In this document: one piece after another, positions 1 to 38,101 of the stretch
Layout: every line of letters starts with the position of its first letter
How positions within the stretch are numbered: the first letter of the stretch is position 1
Assembly: GCA_965287045.1 (NCBI GenBank)
Contig: OZ336878.1
Span: forward strand, 97,030,001-97,094,000
Reading direction: 5' to 3'
DNA from: Carcharhinus amblyrhynchos
Lineage: Eukaryota
Length of the DNA stretch: 64,000 nucleotides
Made by a program: the position numbers and the translations under genes
The notes under the pieces: model-generated
What the model saw: only the letters and a program-made list of their open reading frames with translations
What the model was told of the DNA's origin: nothing
Databases searched by the model: none

Positions 1-3000
1 CACCTCAAAACAGTGTACAAAACCAAGAACATTAAGGCCAAATGTTCTTGATGTGGTAAGTATGGGGAGTTCCACTCTATTGCCTGCCACTACCCGAAAT
101 GTCAGGGTGAGGGTCGATCCTTGATAGTTGGGCAATATCAGTGCAGTGCTTGTGAGTTGGCCTTCACAACAGAGAATGGACTCAGCCAACACGAGAGACA
201 CGGTCATCCAGTTCTTCACAATGAGAAACGCGCGAAGAAAGCACTGCCTAAAACCACAACCAAATGGGGTAAAAACATGAGTGTATGGTCCGAGGAGGAG
301 GAATCACTCCTCAAAGAGCTTGAAAAGAGATTTGCTGGTGCCTGGTTTATAAATAAAGAGATTGCCAGTATTTTAACATCTAAAACTGGCAAGCAAATCT
401 CAGATAAGCGCAGGTTGCTTGCAATTGCATGCAAAACAGCAAACACTGCAACACGGGCAGATGTTGATGTACATCCGGATTCCGAGCAAGAACAGGAACC
501 GGAAGAGGCAGATGTCGGGAGCCCAGCCCCGCATGTAAGTATCGCTGGTAAACCTCCGGACCGAGTCCCTAAGTATAGGGACGTGGATGAACACCTGATC
601 CAGGTGGAGGAGCTCCTGAATGCAAGGAATGATCCCGACAAACATGTCTTAGCAGTGGGTATAGTCGAGAGCATCACTGACCTTCTGATGGACGATGAGA
701 CAAACAGGCAAAGAAAGAACGGTCTGACGGCAAAGGTACCTAAGAAAGGCACTCGGAAGGTAAGGCACGAGGTCAACAGCGGAGCCAGAAAGTGATGGGC
801 AAAACAGAAATCCGTTTTCAGAGCAACTCAGCTGCTCTAGAAGAACAACAGGCGCCAGCTGGCCCGTCAAATCACGGGCATGCCGTCACAAATCACTTGT
901 CCACTATCCATAACTGAACTGGAGGCAAGCTTTTGGGAGAAACTCTCCAGCCAGAACAATAAGGCAAATATAAGCAAAAACACACCATACAGCGGGCAAA
1001 CGGATAAGGGTGAGTTGATGAAGCCGATCACCACAGAAGAGGTTATCCAAGCCATCTAGGGTACTAAGGAGGCAAGTGCACCTGGACCAGATGGTCAAAA
1101 GTTGGAAGACATCCGAGACATCCATGAGGCATATGAGACCCGTATATCTCGCCTCTTCACTCTGTGGTTGGCCTCGAGAACAATCCCGAACTGTATGAAA
1201 CAGAGTTGGACAGTCCTTATCCCAAAGTGCCAGGATAAGGAACGGCTGAAAAGCATTGACAACTGGTGTCCAAATACGATCGGCCCAATGCTGCTACTAC
1301 GCCTCTTTGCCAAGATCACGGCGAAGAGACTGAGTGAGATAGTCGAAATAAACCCATGGCAGAAAGGGTTTTTAGCAGCAACTCCCGGATGCAACGAGAA
1401 CTTCGCAGTGTTGCAAAACATCATGAAGGGAACTAAGAAAAATCACAAGGACCTGGCCATTGTTTTTGTGGACCTGGCAAAAGCGTTCGACTCGGTGGGG
1501 CACAAGCTGGTCATCAGGTCATTACAAAGAACAAAGCTACCAAACGCCTTTGTAGAGCTTATTCAGGACCTCTGCACTGGCAACACAACGGTGGTCGAGG
1601 GCACAAAGTCCAAGACCGCCCCAGTAAACATTGAGAGGGGTGTCAAGCAGGGAGACCCGCTCTCTCCAATATTATTCAACATTCAAATGGATCCACTGAT
1701 ATGTAGTCTCGAAGAGGCGAGATCTGGTGTCAGCATGACGCTAGATGGAGCAAGAGTCAACTGCTCAGCCCTTGCATTTGCGGATGACATTGCCCTGCTT
1801 AGTGATTCATACGTCGGGATGACCCGTAACCTGAAGATTCTCCAGTCTTTTTGCGACTCGACAGGTCTGGCTGTCAGCACCAGCAAGACCAAAGGCTTCC
1901 ACTTTACCTGTAAGAGGAAGACCTTCATATACAATCAATGCAAGAACTGGCAGATTCGGAAGGAAGATATTGCATACATCCCCCCAGGAGAGGCTGAGAA
2001 ATGCCTGGGAGCCCAGATGGATCCATGGGCTGGCGTAGAAGAAGGTGCATGGGAAGAGAGACTGAAGGCCTGGATTTCCAGCTTACAGGCAACAGCTCTT
2101 CGGCTGAGGCAACGAGTAGAGCTGTTTACAGTCCATGTCATTCCGAGGCTATATTTTCATTTGATCCTGTCAGAAGCGTCTCAGAATATCCTTATTAAAC
2201 TGGACCAACTGATCCGTAATGCTGTCAAGCAGTTCATGCACCTTCTACCCCATACAACATATGGCATCCTCTATTCACGGGTTCGGAATGGAGGTTTGGA
2301 AATTCCCAAGCTGGAGATCCAAATACCATCTGCAGTGATCTGAAAATGGGAGTCGCTGTCTGCCTCCAATGACTGAGTCATTCACGCCTCTTTCCAGTTC
2401 TTTGAACAGAACATTGACGAGAGCATCAAAGAACTGCGGTCTCAAGGCATTGAGAGAGATCGAGGACTTCATGCCAACGAATGAAGAGAGCAGCAATGAT
2501 GAAACGGAGTCATTGAACATGATCAGAGCCGCATTACCAACACTCGATGCGGAGGAGGCAGGTCCCAAGAAACCAGTGAACAATTATGCAGGGTGGAGGG
2601 AATGGGAGTTCTGCAAGTGGAGGCAGCTACCCTCTCGAGGCATCGGAATGCACTACTATAATAATGACAAAATTTCAAACAGTTGGATTAAGGCTGCATA
2701 CCAGCTGAAATCACATTGCTTCCTTAATAACTTGCTACTCAGGTGCAATCTGTATCCCACAAGGGTGACCCTGTCAAGAGGGAATCCCTTCACCACTAAA
2801 ACCTGCCGAAGGTGTGAAGCGGGTTTAGAAACTCTGAGTCACATTTCTGGCCGTTGCCCGTTTGTTAAGAACTGCCAGATTAAACGCCACAATAAGATCC
2901 TGGAACAGCTGCGCAACTACGTTGGAAAATACGGCTGGACATCCTACCTTGAACCATGAATTATCACCAAAGATGATTATCACCAAAGGCTCCCTTTGGA

Positions 3001-3327
3001 AGCCAGACATCGTCTTCAAGAGGGAGAAAGACCAAAGGGTTGCAGCGTTGGATGTGACGGTTCGGTTCGAAGACAATTGCAGCAGTCTGGAGAAGGCGTG
3101 GCAGGAAAAGTGCCAGAAGTACCAACACCTCGGACCGGAGGTTGAAAAACTGACTGAATGCCAGAATCCCCAGTTCAGTTGTTGGCGCCTGGCGTAAGTG
3201 GCTGGAAAAGAACAACAGCCTCATGACCTTCCTGGGAATAAAGTGATTCCAATCATTCGCCCAACAAATTTCAAGGCTCACTTTGTCGCTTACGTTGGAG
3301 CTACTGGGGATCTTCAACGACAGGTGA
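1..3327 (+). pseudogene. Disrupted single R2 ORF (ZnF-Myb-RT-CCHC-RLE)
   Basis: In-frame stops at 49, 793, 838, 1057 and 2341. Frameshifts near 2400-2440, ~2960-2990 (tandem duplication of ATTATCACCAAAG) and ~3175. Ends VVGAWRKW...LELLGIFNDR* at 3327. Confidence 0.9.
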
Positions 3328-3624
3328 GAGGTGACTGAGACCATTAGACAAGCTGGCCACTTGTCAGACCATTGGGCTTATAGCCCGCCAGGAGGCCATA
3401 TGAACTTATATGGTGGACTCTTTGTTAATTGTTTGTATTGTCTGTGTATGTCAATTTTTATTCTTTGATGACACCTATTCCATCTACAGGTGCTACAGTC
3501 CACCTTGTTGACCAACAAGGGACGTGCACTCGGTGGGTCGTGGTTGGATGGCTCTTGGGTGTTGATTCGAGAGGTGCCCAGTCCGTCACATCCGTTAGCG
3601 TATGCTAATTATGGACTGGTCAAT

Positions 3625-3831
3625 GGGCAACACGTCACCTCAGTGGTTAGCACTGCGTGCTGGGCAGTTACAGAGGTCCAGGACGGATTTCTGACTTGGG
3701 TTAATGTCTGTGGGAGTTTGCACATTCTCCCCGTGTTTGCGTGGGTTTTCCCCGGCACTCCGTTTTTCTCCCACATCCGAAAAACGTGCTTGTTAGGCTG
3801 ATTGGCGACAATAAATCGTCCTGTAATTGGA
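3625..3831 (+). mobile_element. V-SINE (HE1-like) inside the R2 3' UTR
   Basis: tRNA-like head (CAGTGGTTAGCACTG) and V-domain (TGTGGGAGTTTGCACATTCTCCCCGTGTTTGCGTGGGTTTT...CTCCCACATCCGAAAAACGTGC...GTTAGG). Confidence 0.8.
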
Positions 3832-6070
3832 TTCCCCTTAATTCGGCATGAACGTAATCCTCTAAATTTCCACCCTCGTCATTATGAGGGTTCTTGTGCA
3901 CTCGGTACCGACAACCTGGCCCATCAGTAGGCCCCTATTAGATCTGGAATGACTCTAGACGGCTAGTTATACTATCTCTAGCTTCGACAACAGCTCACGT
4001 TCCTCAATCAAGATCAGTGGGCCCTTGACTGTGGTTCCGCTAGAGGTAGTCAAAACCGTCGACGAGCGACGTAAAGACTCGAACAAGGCACTCATTGAGT
4101 GTATTAAAGTAAGCCTGACAGGGAAGGTTATGGGAAAATGCATTTTATGGTAAATATCATGCTGGAGTTAGCGGAAATGAAAGAGAAATAAAATGTGATG
4201 TCAATATTCCCTCTTATTGATGTTATCGAACAACTTTGTTTCCATTCTTGATCATTTATCCCACATAAGAGAGCTCCATATATCTTCTCTCACACATTTC
4301 AATGTTTGCTTTTCAGAAAAAATCACACGGCCAACCGCCGCGATCATTCTGAAGGCTCTCGGCTTGACGCCAAACACCTCTTAAATCTCTAATTTTTCGT
4401 CATTATGTTTATTGTTTTATTTATCCGCCATTCAATTCACTTGCACTTCTCAACACGCAAGATGAGTTTCGACCATGCTCGATCATGAAACCATCCAGCT
4501 TTCAGCCGATCGCTCATGAACCCCAGCTGCCAACTTCTGAGTGCCATAGACCATCTGTTATGCAAATTAATGCTGATAGGCAAAGTTCTGGGAAATACAT
4601 TTTACGGTTGATGTCATGCGGAAGTTGGGAGAAATAGTAGAACATTTATTGGATAATATTGATACTGTTTCTTTCCGATGTTATGTTTCATCTAGGTAAT
4701 GATCGTTTTCTTGTTTTCATTATGTTCCACGTGCTGAAAAAAATCCTTCAATCTAAAAACATGGCAGCGTTCGGATTACGCATAATATCCCGCAGAATTA
4801 CTAAACTGAAATGCTGGAATGTTGTGTATGCTACCACACGACGCACATCTTCTTAAAGATGTGTTCCTGTCAAATTCTGAACTAAATCTAGTTCAGAGAG
4901 AAAAAAAAAATCACATAGAGATTGAAGACCGGAGGCAAAATCAACCACATGAAATAGTTCGCAAAGCAAACGTCACTTAGTGGATAGGTAAACTTAAATA
5001 GATTAATGGACCAGAGTTATTTTGCACTTCTTTTTCTCTTCTACGTCTTCATTTATTTATGAGTAGAATTTCAAAACGGCTCAAGGCGCCCACTGGTAGC
5101 GAGCAAGAGAGCATTAAACACAGCGTCTGACAAAAACAACATGCAGCATTAAATGAGAAATATGTTATTGTAATGCAGGTTTTTCGCTAACAGGAAAAAT
5201 GATAATTCTTTCCGCGACTCAAGAAAATGCAATTTGAAAATATTCACCTTTAGCCGAAGAAAGACTTTAATGTTCTTCCTGGAGGCCCGACACCTCTGAC
5301 TGACCAGCACGCACCTGAACAGGTAAGATGTCCATGGAGCAGGTTCGACCTTGTTCAACTTTCCAGTTTTCACCTAACCACTCATGAATCCTTCTGACGG
5401 CTAAACACCGCCCATTTTGCAATCATAACGCAAGTGTTCACTCCGCAATACTACAAATGCAAAATTATGTGGATAGTGCAAATCTGAACTGAAAACAGAG
5501 AGCTTCGAGAAACATTAGACACGAAACAACAGCTCGGCTTCTGTCAGATTTTCCCAGAACATTAATGTGGTTTCGGCACTTTTACCTTTACGTCCGTTCG
5601 CACTGACTGCATGAATATGTTACCAGTAAATTGATGTAATCGGCAGTGCATCAAGGCACTTCCAGAATTTTGCCGATCAGTCACAAAGATTGAGATCATT
5701 CTCTCCCAGTAATTTGAAAACACAGACCTCAATCGCTGCGAAAGGCCCCGGGTAGCCCCAGGAGCAGAGATGGTAGCCAGCAATCTCCATGATGTTAGTG
5801 AAAGTGTGAAATGATGCATCGTCACAGGAAATTGAGGTTGAATAGAACTAGCGAACTTCAGGAGATCTGTAATTGTGGAAAGTGACAAGAGAAGCGTTTG
5901 ATTTCTGGAGCATCAGAGTGACTTTTAAGGGCAATAGTTATGAAGGAAATATATATATGACTGAACGTTTCACCATCAATGCATGTTTCCGTCACACAAA
6001 GATTCTCCTCTGCTTTTGTTTTGTATTGTTTGAGCATGAGCTGCAGAGAGACAAACATTTAAAAAGCTAT

Positions 6071-7619: not shown

Positions 7620-7870
7620 GTTCCACATGACTGATGTGGTGTTGTGTGCCCGAGTAAAGCCGTACGTCCAACAAGTCCTGCAGTGAAGGACACAATTCTC
7701 GCTTCCGGCTAAGTTAACACAGATGACTAGATTCAGCTTTCAATCCGTTGGTTGCTGACTGAAAATCTGTCATACTAATGATCCGTTCAGATGCAACTCA
7801 TTTTCTACCTTGTCACTCATCCTTCCAGAATTGTTCAGTACATCCATCATATTCTGTCAAATGCGCATGT

Positions 7871-9681
7871 GAACGTTGGACCCTTAGAGGATGAGAGGGG
7901 GGACTTAGTGGTAGGGGGTGGGGAAATGGCTGAGGTCTTGAATAACTTTTTTGTTTCGGTCTTCACGGAGGAGGACGTGAATAATTTGCCGGGTGTTAGC
8001 GATGGAAAGGTGGTAGCACTGGAGGGTCTCAATGTCATTATTGTTACTAGAGAGGCGGTGCTCGACAGACTGGAGGGACTGATTGTGGACAAGTCCCCAG
8101 GACCGGATGGAATGCATCCGAGGGTTCTGAAAGAAATGGCGGAGGTGATAATGGATGCCTTGGTGGTTATTTTCCAAACGTCGCTGGATTCCGGGAAGTG
8201 CGGGAAGATTGGAAAACGGCTAATATTACGCCGTTGTTTAAGAAGGGTGGCAGGCAAAAGGCAGGGAATTATAGACTGGTTAGTTTAATGTCTGTTGTAG
8301 GTAAAATGTTAGAATCCGTCATCAAGGAGGAAATAGCGAGGCACCTTGAGGGGAATTGCTTGATAGAGCAGACGTAGCACGGTTTCGTTAAGGGGAAGTC
8401 GTGTCTGACAAATTTACTGGAGTTCTATGAGGATGTGTCTAGGGCGGTGGATAGAGGAGAGCCGGTGGATGTGGTCCTTCTTGATTTTCAGAAGTCGTTG
8501 GAGAAGGTACCTCACAAGAGGTTATTGCAGAAGGTAAGGGGGCATGGAGTTGGGGGTAGGGTGTTAGCGTGGATAGAGGATTGGTTGTCAAATAGGAGGC
8601 AGAGAATGGGGGTTAATGGGTGCTATTCGGATTGGTGGGTGGTGACTAGTAGAGTGCCCCAGGGGTCGGTGCTGGGGCCTCAGCTATTTACCATTTATAT
8701 CGATGATCTGGAGGAGGGAACCGAGTGTATGGTGTCGAAATTTGCTGATGACACCAAGATTGGTAGAACGGCAAATTGCGCGGAGGGTGTGGAGAGTCTG
8801 CAGAAGGATCTAGATAGGCTGGACGAACGGGCCAGGAACTGGCAAATGGAATTTAATGTTGGCAAGTGTGAGGTGGTCCACTTTGGTAGGAAGAATGGTA
8901 GGAAGGACTATTACTTATGGGGCGAAAAACTGCAGCAGGCGACGGTGCAGAGGGACCTCGGGGTCCTTGTGCATGAGTCACAAAAACCCAGCCTGCAGGT
9001 GCAGCAGGTGGTCAGGAAGGCTAATGGGATGCTGGCCTTCATAGCGAGGGGGATTTAATATAAAAGTAGGGAGGTCTTGCTGCAGCTGTATAGGGCATTG
9101 GTGAGGCCGCAGCTGGAGTACTGTGTGCAGCTTTGGTCGCCGCACTTACACAAGGATATTTTGGCCTTGGAGGGAGTGCAGAGGAGGTTTACTAGGCTGA
9201 TACCGGAGTTGAGGGGGTTGAGCTATGAGGAGAGGTTGAATAAACTAGGCTTGTACTCGTTAGAGTTTCGAAGAATGAGGGGAGATCTCATTGAGACGTA
9301 TAAGATGATGAATGGGATGGATAGGATAGAGGTGGGGAGACTCTTCCCGCTCAGAAAGGACAGTAGGACTAGAGGGCACAGCCTCAAGATAAAGGGGGGG
9401 CGGTTTAGAACGGAGTTGAGGAGGAACTTCTTCACTCAAAGGGTGGTGAATCTCTGGAATTCTCTGCCCGTTGAAGTGGTGGAGGCTGCCTCGCTAAATA
9501 TTTTTAAGACGCGGGTTGATGGATTTTTGATAAGCGAGGGGATTAAGGGTTATGGGGAGAGGGCGGGAATATGGAACTGAGCCACGACAGATCAGCCATG
9601 ATCTTATTGAATGGCGGGGCAGGCTCGAAGGGCTAGATGGCCTACTCCTGCTCCTATTTCTTATGTTCTTATGTTCTCATG
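7871..9681 (+). mobile_element. CR1/HER1-type LINE, 5'-truncated, disrupted RT
   Basis: ORF fragments KSPGPDGMHPRVLKE, VPQGSVLGP, KFADDTK, RRMRGDLIE and a (TTCTTATG)n tail. Absent from the paralogous spacer at ~23775. Confidence 0.95.
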
Positions 9682-38029: not shown

Positions 38030-38101
38030 TGCCGTGACTCGGATTCGAACCGAGGTTGCTGCGGCCACAACGCAGAGTACTAACCACTATACGATCACGG
38101 C
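38030..38101 (-). tRNA. trnH-GUG: tRNA-His(GUG), intact
   Basis: Exact reverse complement of the canonical sequence; T8 terminator immediately 3' (A-run at 38022-38029 on +). Confidence 0.98.

Follow-up and report, generated by a model that had tools for sequence, protein, structure and literature searches.

The 3′ UTR of an R2 retrotransposon in the shark Carcharhinus amblyrhynchos holds a conserved box that, by sequence comparison, is complementary to the host 28S rRNA just downstream of where R2 inserts. Folding predictions suggest that this box probably pairs in cis with the read-through 28S tail of the R2 transcript, and we infer that such a duplex would shield or chaperone a tail whose natural partner strands have been lost.

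A decayed lineage-A R2 and its 3′ region

The window (the whole 64,000-nucleotide stretch of contig OZ336878.1 that was analyzed) opens with the 3′ part of a decayed R2 element (positions 1-4108), which carries many stops and frameshifts. Its architecture is that of R2 lineage A, with three N-terminal zinc fingers, Myb, RT, CCHC knuckle, and restriction-like endonuclease in a single ORF; in this copy the first zinc finger is degenerate and the ORF is broken by stops. The RT was detected with Pfam (RVT_1, E 5e-30), and the endonuclease was recognized by eye and alignment, not by Pfam. The element starts ~790 bases 5′ of the window, where the third zinc finger and 17 nt of upstream 28S were found (L035:5215-5231, identical to 28S 2616-2632), and because of this 28S stretch at the 5′ end and the third finger we regard the element as a lineage-A copy of an rDNA-resident master that inserted elsewhere. 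Words resembling the catalytic core of an HDV-like ribozyme were seen by eye near the R2 5′ end. The closest named proteins are shark proteins, and in the available parts of Hassan et al. 2026 (PMC13188248) the shark lineage-A elements R2-1_STig, R2-1_CPu, and R2-1_CCar likewise have three zinc fingers, Myb, RT, and endonuclease, whereas the window copy is dead and lies outside rDNA. The features of the window that bear on this analysis are as follows.

1..3327, + strand: decayed 3′ part of the R2 ORF, with CCHC and C2H2 zinc fingers, Myb, RT, zinc knuckle, and restriction-like endonuclease
3328..4108, + strand: R2 3′ UTR, with the family 3′ end at about 4108-4111
3641..3806, + strand: high-copy repeat inside the 3′ UTR, presumably V-SINE-like (SINE-like), common to the family and with 3 further matches in the window
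3922-3931, 3933-3941, and 3991-4003, + strand: words antisense to 28S domain V, exact matches, within chance in the host genome
3971..3982, + strand: left arm, confined to the window subfamily; in the absence of a long tail it is predicted to cover the box's 3′ half
4018..4050, + strand: candidate anti-tail box, antisense to 28S +69..+102, with its core 4022-4044 matching +76..+98
4057..4081, + strand: H-type pseudoknot, one stem joining 4057-4061 to 4067-4071 and the second, taken from the sequence and not computed, 4063-4066 to 4078-4081
4088..4108, + strand: 3′ stem-loop (4088-4093 with 4097-4102) and A-rich end
7782-9580, strand not given: decayed LINE ORF2 with RT detected, which we take, like the LINEs at R2 3′ flanks, to be CR1-like

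The box lies directly 5′ of the pseudoknot-hinge-stem (4057-4108), a unit kept among 62 R2 3′ ends that were themselves collected by this motif. The same architecture is described for avian and turtle R2 in the available text of PMC12180492 and PMC12222951, and it is the part common to the non-autonomous element described below; the box, in contrast, lies 5′ of the 65-67 nt seen in those structures and is removed in minimal templates. Copy searches with the whole 3′ UTR returned 4513 candidates, as against 41 with 3890-4060.

Dozens of dispersed copies of the window family were found in the host genome, and family copies end in canonical 28S tails; the window copy itself is dispersed, with no 28S after its 3′ end. 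No autonomous window-family copy inside rDNA was found in the host genome, where copy counts are lower bounds, and among the elements found there only the non-autonomous element has rDNA-length context. Separately, 18 of the 62 R2 3′ ends sit at one register in LINE ORF2, at a motif whose first letters resemble the 28S site (compare window 8268-8274); they include the 3′ flanks of L051, L056-L058, L062, L064, L067, L068, L070, L153, L155, L163, and L170. Because the flanks of these LINE-sited ends differ, repeated insertion at a second, high-copy target is suggested, and 3 more ends lie at another common LINE register near 8985. The window also contains tRNA genes at 14749-14823, 15844-15915, 18133-18204, and 38030-38101, with another 5′ of the window in L035; three of them score identically and were read as tRNA-His, with the anticodon assigned by eye.

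The box matches the host 28S in antisense

The host's own 28S (L031) was used as reference, with the R2 nick after 28S position 2641 and at most 2 bases of difference among four 28S copies. An earlier note on this DNA, made from the letters alone, had proposed a 23-nt antisense match, and every string that it quoted is present where it had been placed. The match is real: 4022-4044 is antisense to 28S 2717-2739 (+76..+98) at 21/23 positions (BLAST E 2e-4), its ungapped score being reached by 1/1000 dinucleotide shuffles and 0/75 genomic control windows, and its gapped score by 0/200 shuffles. Both mismatches in the core are genuine (A-C and C-A, not G-U); a sister subfamily shows reversion of one, and a few copies that of the other. 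Pairing is predicted to run on past the core, joining 4045-4049 to +69..+73 across a bulge. A look-alike of the nick site had also been proposed at 4044-4054, and 10 of its 11 letters do agree; its first six letters, however, belong to the antisense box as extended, and what follows in subfamilies B and C is different. Since box pairing extends through 4045-4049 to +69, most of the resemblance is thereby accounted for. Among assembled sequencing contigs, 4 of 22 runs cover the box region; these contigs mix copies and yield variants only, and one high-depth variant, at 4039 in one run, breaks a pair.

The remaining words noticed in the 3′ UTR fared less well. The 13-, 10-, and 9-mer antisense to domain V are exact, but after a search of the whole 28S they fall within chance, as the earlier note had allowed for 9-11-mers taken alone (25/200 shuffles; 4/12 best-of-tile nulls), and they are absent from subfamilies B and C and from the non-autonomous element. 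A duplex with domain V (−62 kcal/mol, 0/300 against the chosen target) was rejected since it is not significant once all of 28S is searched. A sense domain-V fossil at 3450-3542 was likewise rejected: 6/400 shuffles reach it for the window copy, but 192/400 for the family majority. In the available part of PMC13188248, the R2 UTR of a stingray repeats an 11-mer and a 7-mer of the domain-V words and that of a dogfish has a variant 9-mer, for which reason these words are kept as candidates.

Conservation across subfamilies and a non-autonomous element

The conservation of the box was examined in two diverged subfamilies, B and C, which were found by protein search and have mainly the last ~112 nt of the UTR in common with the window. 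Both carry a longer 28S match than the window does, from 23/25 to 24/27 over +76..+102. Compared with an A copy, four-fold sites are identical at only 71/150, 35/81, and 67/141 positions (0.43-0.48), whereas the box is identical at 25-26/33 and antisense to 28S at 28-29/33, a conservation above that of four-fold sites in all three pairs (Fisher p 0.0008-0.003). The 100 nt 5′ of the box are also about 0.66-0.78 identical in a gapped alignment, and constraint therefore reaches the whole 3′ region, not the box alone. In the window subfamily the box has drifted to 26/31 antisense, and many of the fixed subfamily differences within the box are mismatches, not G-U pairs.

The non-autonomous element provides a second comparison. 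It is a 1.1-kb non-coding insert at the R2 site in host rDNA, with the R2 3′ end present, no R2 ORF, and a sub-threshold Rfam HDV match (20.8 bits, E 2.4), and it has only 55 alignable nt in common with the window. Its box was missed by BLAST and detected by duplex folding: the 70 nt 5′ of the common end are predicted to pair with +60..+115 (−55 kcal/mol, z −6.5) in a shifted register, and three A-to-G changes, each giving G-U, fall within one 8-nt helix of this pairing. When the 70 nt 5′ of the pseudoknot were matched to 150 tiles of 28S, the best tile was +60 or +85 in 6/10 ends (the window's own, three from sister-subfamily copies, and two from non-autonomous ones) and lay elsewhere in 4/10. 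A z of −3 or lower against +21..+125 was obtained for 43 of the 62 distinct 3′ ends, a count made on related and not independent copies. As observations in their own right, the family of ~1.1-kb elements comprises L040:1558-2690 (− strand), L041, and L074-L080 and has an internal repeat of its 5′ module, and an older relative (~75% identity) is dispersed in the host genome.

These comparisons bear on whether the match could be a neutral fossil, as the earlier note had offered, or a chance resemblance without function. Dead copies decay, fixed mismatches are present, and engineered R2 systems work without the box, all of which such a reading would accommodate. Set against this, 28-29/33 antisense positions are kept where four-fold identity has fallen to 0.43-0.48, in other words across saturated synonymous divergence; the box recurs in other species; and 1/1000 shuffles reach the match. 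We consider this reading very unlikely and already largely refuted.

Predicted pairing with the read-through tail

In the Rfam model of 28S, +42..+45, +49..+58, and +63..+79 all pair with strands 5′ of the nick, +80..+91 are unpaired, and +92 opens a local hairpin; we take the helices of this region to be H67, H64, H61, and H72. The target strands are orphaned in the co-transcript because ribozyme cleavage removes their partners upstream of the nick. When a +130 tail was appended, folding predicted box-tail pairing at a probability of 0.86 for the window, 0.93 for subfamily B, and 0.77 for the non-autonomous element, compared with a mean of 0.03 and a maximum of 0.37 for 27 control tails. When the tail was left out or cut at +45, folding joined the window box to its own left arm (predicted probability 0.68). 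An in-silico chaperone test was weak, with a pseudoknot stem probability of 0.90 for the native sequence vs 0.47-0.50 with a shuffled box, 8-24% of 25 shuffles reaching the native value; unpairing of +1..+5 was barely altered by box shuffling. The duplex, tile, and box-tail folding predictions, together with the conservation, support the earlier proposal of an anti-rRNA element that could pair with read-through 28S.

The left arm belongs to a hairpin proposed earlier for this 3′ UTR. Its 12-bp helix does form in both the MFE and the centroid structure, but the fold of the 211-nt region is no more stable than that of shuffled sequence (z −0.76; 45/200 as good). As a conserved unit the hairpin does not hold, for the pair 3973-4048 is paired in only 2/27 family copies, and the proposed outer GACGG/CCGTC helix overlaps the pseudoknot stem at 4057-4061, its pair 3961-4057 holding in 7/27 copies. 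A subfamily-B copy has no upstream arm for its box (pairing probability 0.02). The hairpin is thus best read as a predicted alternative fold limited to one lineage.

The pairing may be placed in the R2 life cycle as follows. R2 is transcribed together with rDNA and its 5′ ribozyme removes the upstream 28S, a step that is established, and the R2 RNA continues into 28S, as dispersed copies with 28S tails indirectly show. By the Rfam model, tail strands +42..+79 are then left without partners, which lie 5′ of the nick. The box may capture +69..+102 in a predicted duplex of 25-35 bp, with the pseudoknot, the 3′ stem, and some 65 bases at the start of the tail looped out. Such a duplex would prevent the orphaned tail from disturbing the fold of the pseudoknot, to which protein binds, and from being handled as a pre-60S fragment, until the tail is shortened; in the window subfamily, the freed box would then close on the left arm.

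28S tails of copies and insertion data

Read-through into 28S is seen indirectly in the tails of retroposed copies, at 21 junction matches, 4 of which reach the 28S end and 17 of which are partial, with a search pattern that excludes tails shorter than ~17 nt. Most of the partial tails (14) stop within +17..+45; a further two reach about +85, and one extends to +393. Where the box is clear, copies have tails ending at +27..+45 (8/8), and most box-less truncated copies have tails ending at +17..+42 (6/8). Since tails are just as short in box-less truncated copies, no influence of the box on the position of the 3′ end is visible; tail length was accordingly set aside as a read-out of the box, and the role in 3′-end definition that had been suggested earlier finds no support in these lengths. 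Two further kinds of copy were observed. L179, L182, L183, L188, and L191 are very small dispersed retro-copies in which upstream 28S is joined to the R2 pseudoknot end alone and then to a 28S tail of 17-33 nt, and probably derive from co-transcripts of very short rDNA insertions. L176 (C3:8010152, − strand, host genome) has an R2-type 3′ end, a degenerate box, and a 393-nt 28S tail, its upstream part being unrelated to the window family.

A further reading is that the duplex acts as a cleavage or stop signal that fixes the 3′ end, as a site for a double-strand nuclease or an exonuclease roadblock, or that the box is a ribosome-docking site or a descendant of a snoRNA guide. The native R2 3′ end and the handling of the read-through transcript are stated as unknown in the available text of PMC12222951 and PMC11194090, and a duplex of 25-35 bp could in principle be a nuclease substrate; yet the tail ends show no clustering at the duplex edge (+98..+115), and the equally short tails of box-less copies also speak against it. 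Ribosome pairing, which the earlier note had entertained, is not supported, the target strands being paired with upstream partners in intact 28S. The target region is, moreover, buried in the 60S core. A snoRNA origin is suggested by ATGATGA words, presumably resembling a snoRNA C box, near several boxes, but no Rfam snoRNA lies at or near the box even at E ≤ 5, and capture of a box C/D snoRNA was rejected on the absence of an Rfam match and of CTGA 3′ of the box. We regard this whole group of explanations as highly improbable. The ATGATGA/ATGATTA word itself recurs in L040 about 250-330 nt 5′ of the 3′ end; no D-box partner for the C-box-like words was found. In the available part of PMC13188248 it is also seen, often immediately 3′ of the anti-28S box, in UTRs of shark, teleost, turtle, chimaera, and moth R2s.

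Insertion experiments on avian R2 bear on a role in trans. Templates of 67-100 nt that lack the box region insert as well as full UTRs, or better, in the data available from PMC12180492 and PMC12222951, and on these data the box is dispensable for insertion in trans in human cells; the shortened templates carry short tails only, so that a cis box would have nothing to bind. A need for the box in targeting, a role suggested in the earlier note, is contradicted by these truncations. In a trans mechanism the box, once the tail is shortened, would anneal to nascent pre-rRNA or to the displaced sense DNA of intact rDNA units and so tether the R2 particle near active targets. The same complementarity would serve, the 14/17 partial tails ending at or before +45 fall short of the box target and would leave the box free, and the left arm could mask it until the tail is shortened. 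Apart from the avian result, this account is opposed by the natural partners that the target strands have in intact pre-rRNA and by the many boxed family copies outside rDNA, and we judge it quite unlikely.

Boxes in the R2s of other species

The analysis was extended to other species by eye, using Tables S2 and S8 of PMC13188248, of which part of the workbook and word searches were available, with only the UTR starts visible for long UTRs. The segment that the earlier note had proposed to look for in other shark and fish R2s was recognized in R2-1_STig, which is rDNA-flanked and has the same box (about 24/30) 5′ of the same 3′ pseudoknot as the window, and in R2-1_CPu (11/11 plus 18/20 over +74..+104). 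Antisense boxes against +40..+97 were seen in bird, turtle, teleost, chimaera, and moth R2s: Agelaius (17/17 at +60..+76), Denticeps (19/19 at +40..+58), Forpus (13/13 at +85..+97), Gambusia and Helicoverpa (11/11 at +56..+66 each), Simpsonichthys (12/12), Platysternon (11/12), and Callorhinchus (10/10). A 9-mer related to the Agelaius box occurs at 13 places, and both among the matches listed are passerine UTRs. Of 16 antisense words (10-11 letters, +21..+112), 9 match at least one 3′ UTR and 6 match none among the UTRs listed; the count is not blind, several of the words having been picked once a match had been seen, and row 31, a reverse-stored entry, was left out. Reversed control words gave no match in 5/6 cases, and the sixth gave 13 matches, with 7/7 among those listed being 28S sequence. 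From these sequence matches the anti-28S box appears to be widespread among R2s, though it is not shown to be universal. A metagenome search with a profile from 4 R2 proteins returned 9 distant loci, only one of them in 28S (L143), and no box was found there, z never falling below −0.8; the same four-protein profile found no R2 relatives in viral and prokaryote contigs.

This recurrence must also be weighed against the view that the box arose from 28S once or several times, by template jump or inversion, and was kept because it serves some role within the UTR or binds protein. R2 RT is able to jump templates, and sense 28S has been captured into the 3′ UTR of fish R2s (available text of PMC5035012); the boxes of birds and teleosts look like the upstream strands that are the natural partners, the flanking UTR is constrained too, and internal arms exist in the window copy and in Denticeps. 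Such an origin does not, however, explain the subfamily-B copy that was tested, which is without an internal arm, nor the non-autonomous element, in which sequence and register are altered and pairing is kept, nor registers that vary among lineages yet all lie within +40..+115. We hold this view to be unlikely, and pairing in cis with the tail remains our preferred reading.

Relation to known systems

No description of an antisense 28S box in an R2 3′ UTR was found in a full-text search that most subscription papers lay outside. The closest case in print is that of certain fish R2s with a 28S-derived UTR (R2Gs, R2Pt, R2Bs, and R2Sb; Kojima et al. 2016, PMC5035012), where, as in the window, 28S-related sequence lies inside the 3′ UTR; as we interpret the available text, that sequence is same-strand and tied to more than 100 bp replaced upstream of the site, whereas the window is antisense to the downstream side, and such a derivation was excluded for the window on both counts. 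The "3′ homology" tail of R4/R5 templates likewise concerns the read-through 28S tail, but there sense RNA pairs with nicked primer DNA at +1..+4, and the window UTR is antisense to +69..+102 (PMC11371274; PMC6795142, available parts). The Drosophila R2 SIDEs are like the 1.1-kb rDNA insert L040, with its weak HDV-like ribozyme match, no R2 ORF, and an R2 3′ end; the shark-type element also keeps an anti-28S box, of which the available text of PMC3414825 makes no mention for the SIDEs. A more distant parallel is found outside retrotransposons. The box C/D snoRNA guides and chaperones U3, U8, and U14 pair antisense with rRNA before it folds; compared with these, the predicted window duplex is longer, lies in a retrotransposon transcript, is probably in cis, and has no Rfam snoRNA match.

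Implications for R2 biology

A conserved box against orphaned 28S strands would offer a precise, mutable handle on the processing of a Pol I read-through RNA with a third of 28S still attached. The box may also be relevant to tail-length effects, as lengthening the tail from 4 to 100 nt raises the efficiency of medaka R2 (available text of PMC6795142), yet in avian R2 a tail of R20 is worse than R4 (available text of PMC11371274). Beyond the shark family, we suggest only tentatively that R2s across vertebrates and at least one insect may repeatedly have evolved a 3′ UTR guide that replaces the lost 28S partners, in effect a built-in anti-rRNA chaperone pulling the RNA from ribosome assembly and surveillance toward export, translation, and priming. 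R2 is in active use for gene insertion, with minimal templates that delete the box region, and if the proposal is true, the chaperone guide would be a missing step of the R2 life cycle as well as a module for tail-bearing gene-insertion templates.
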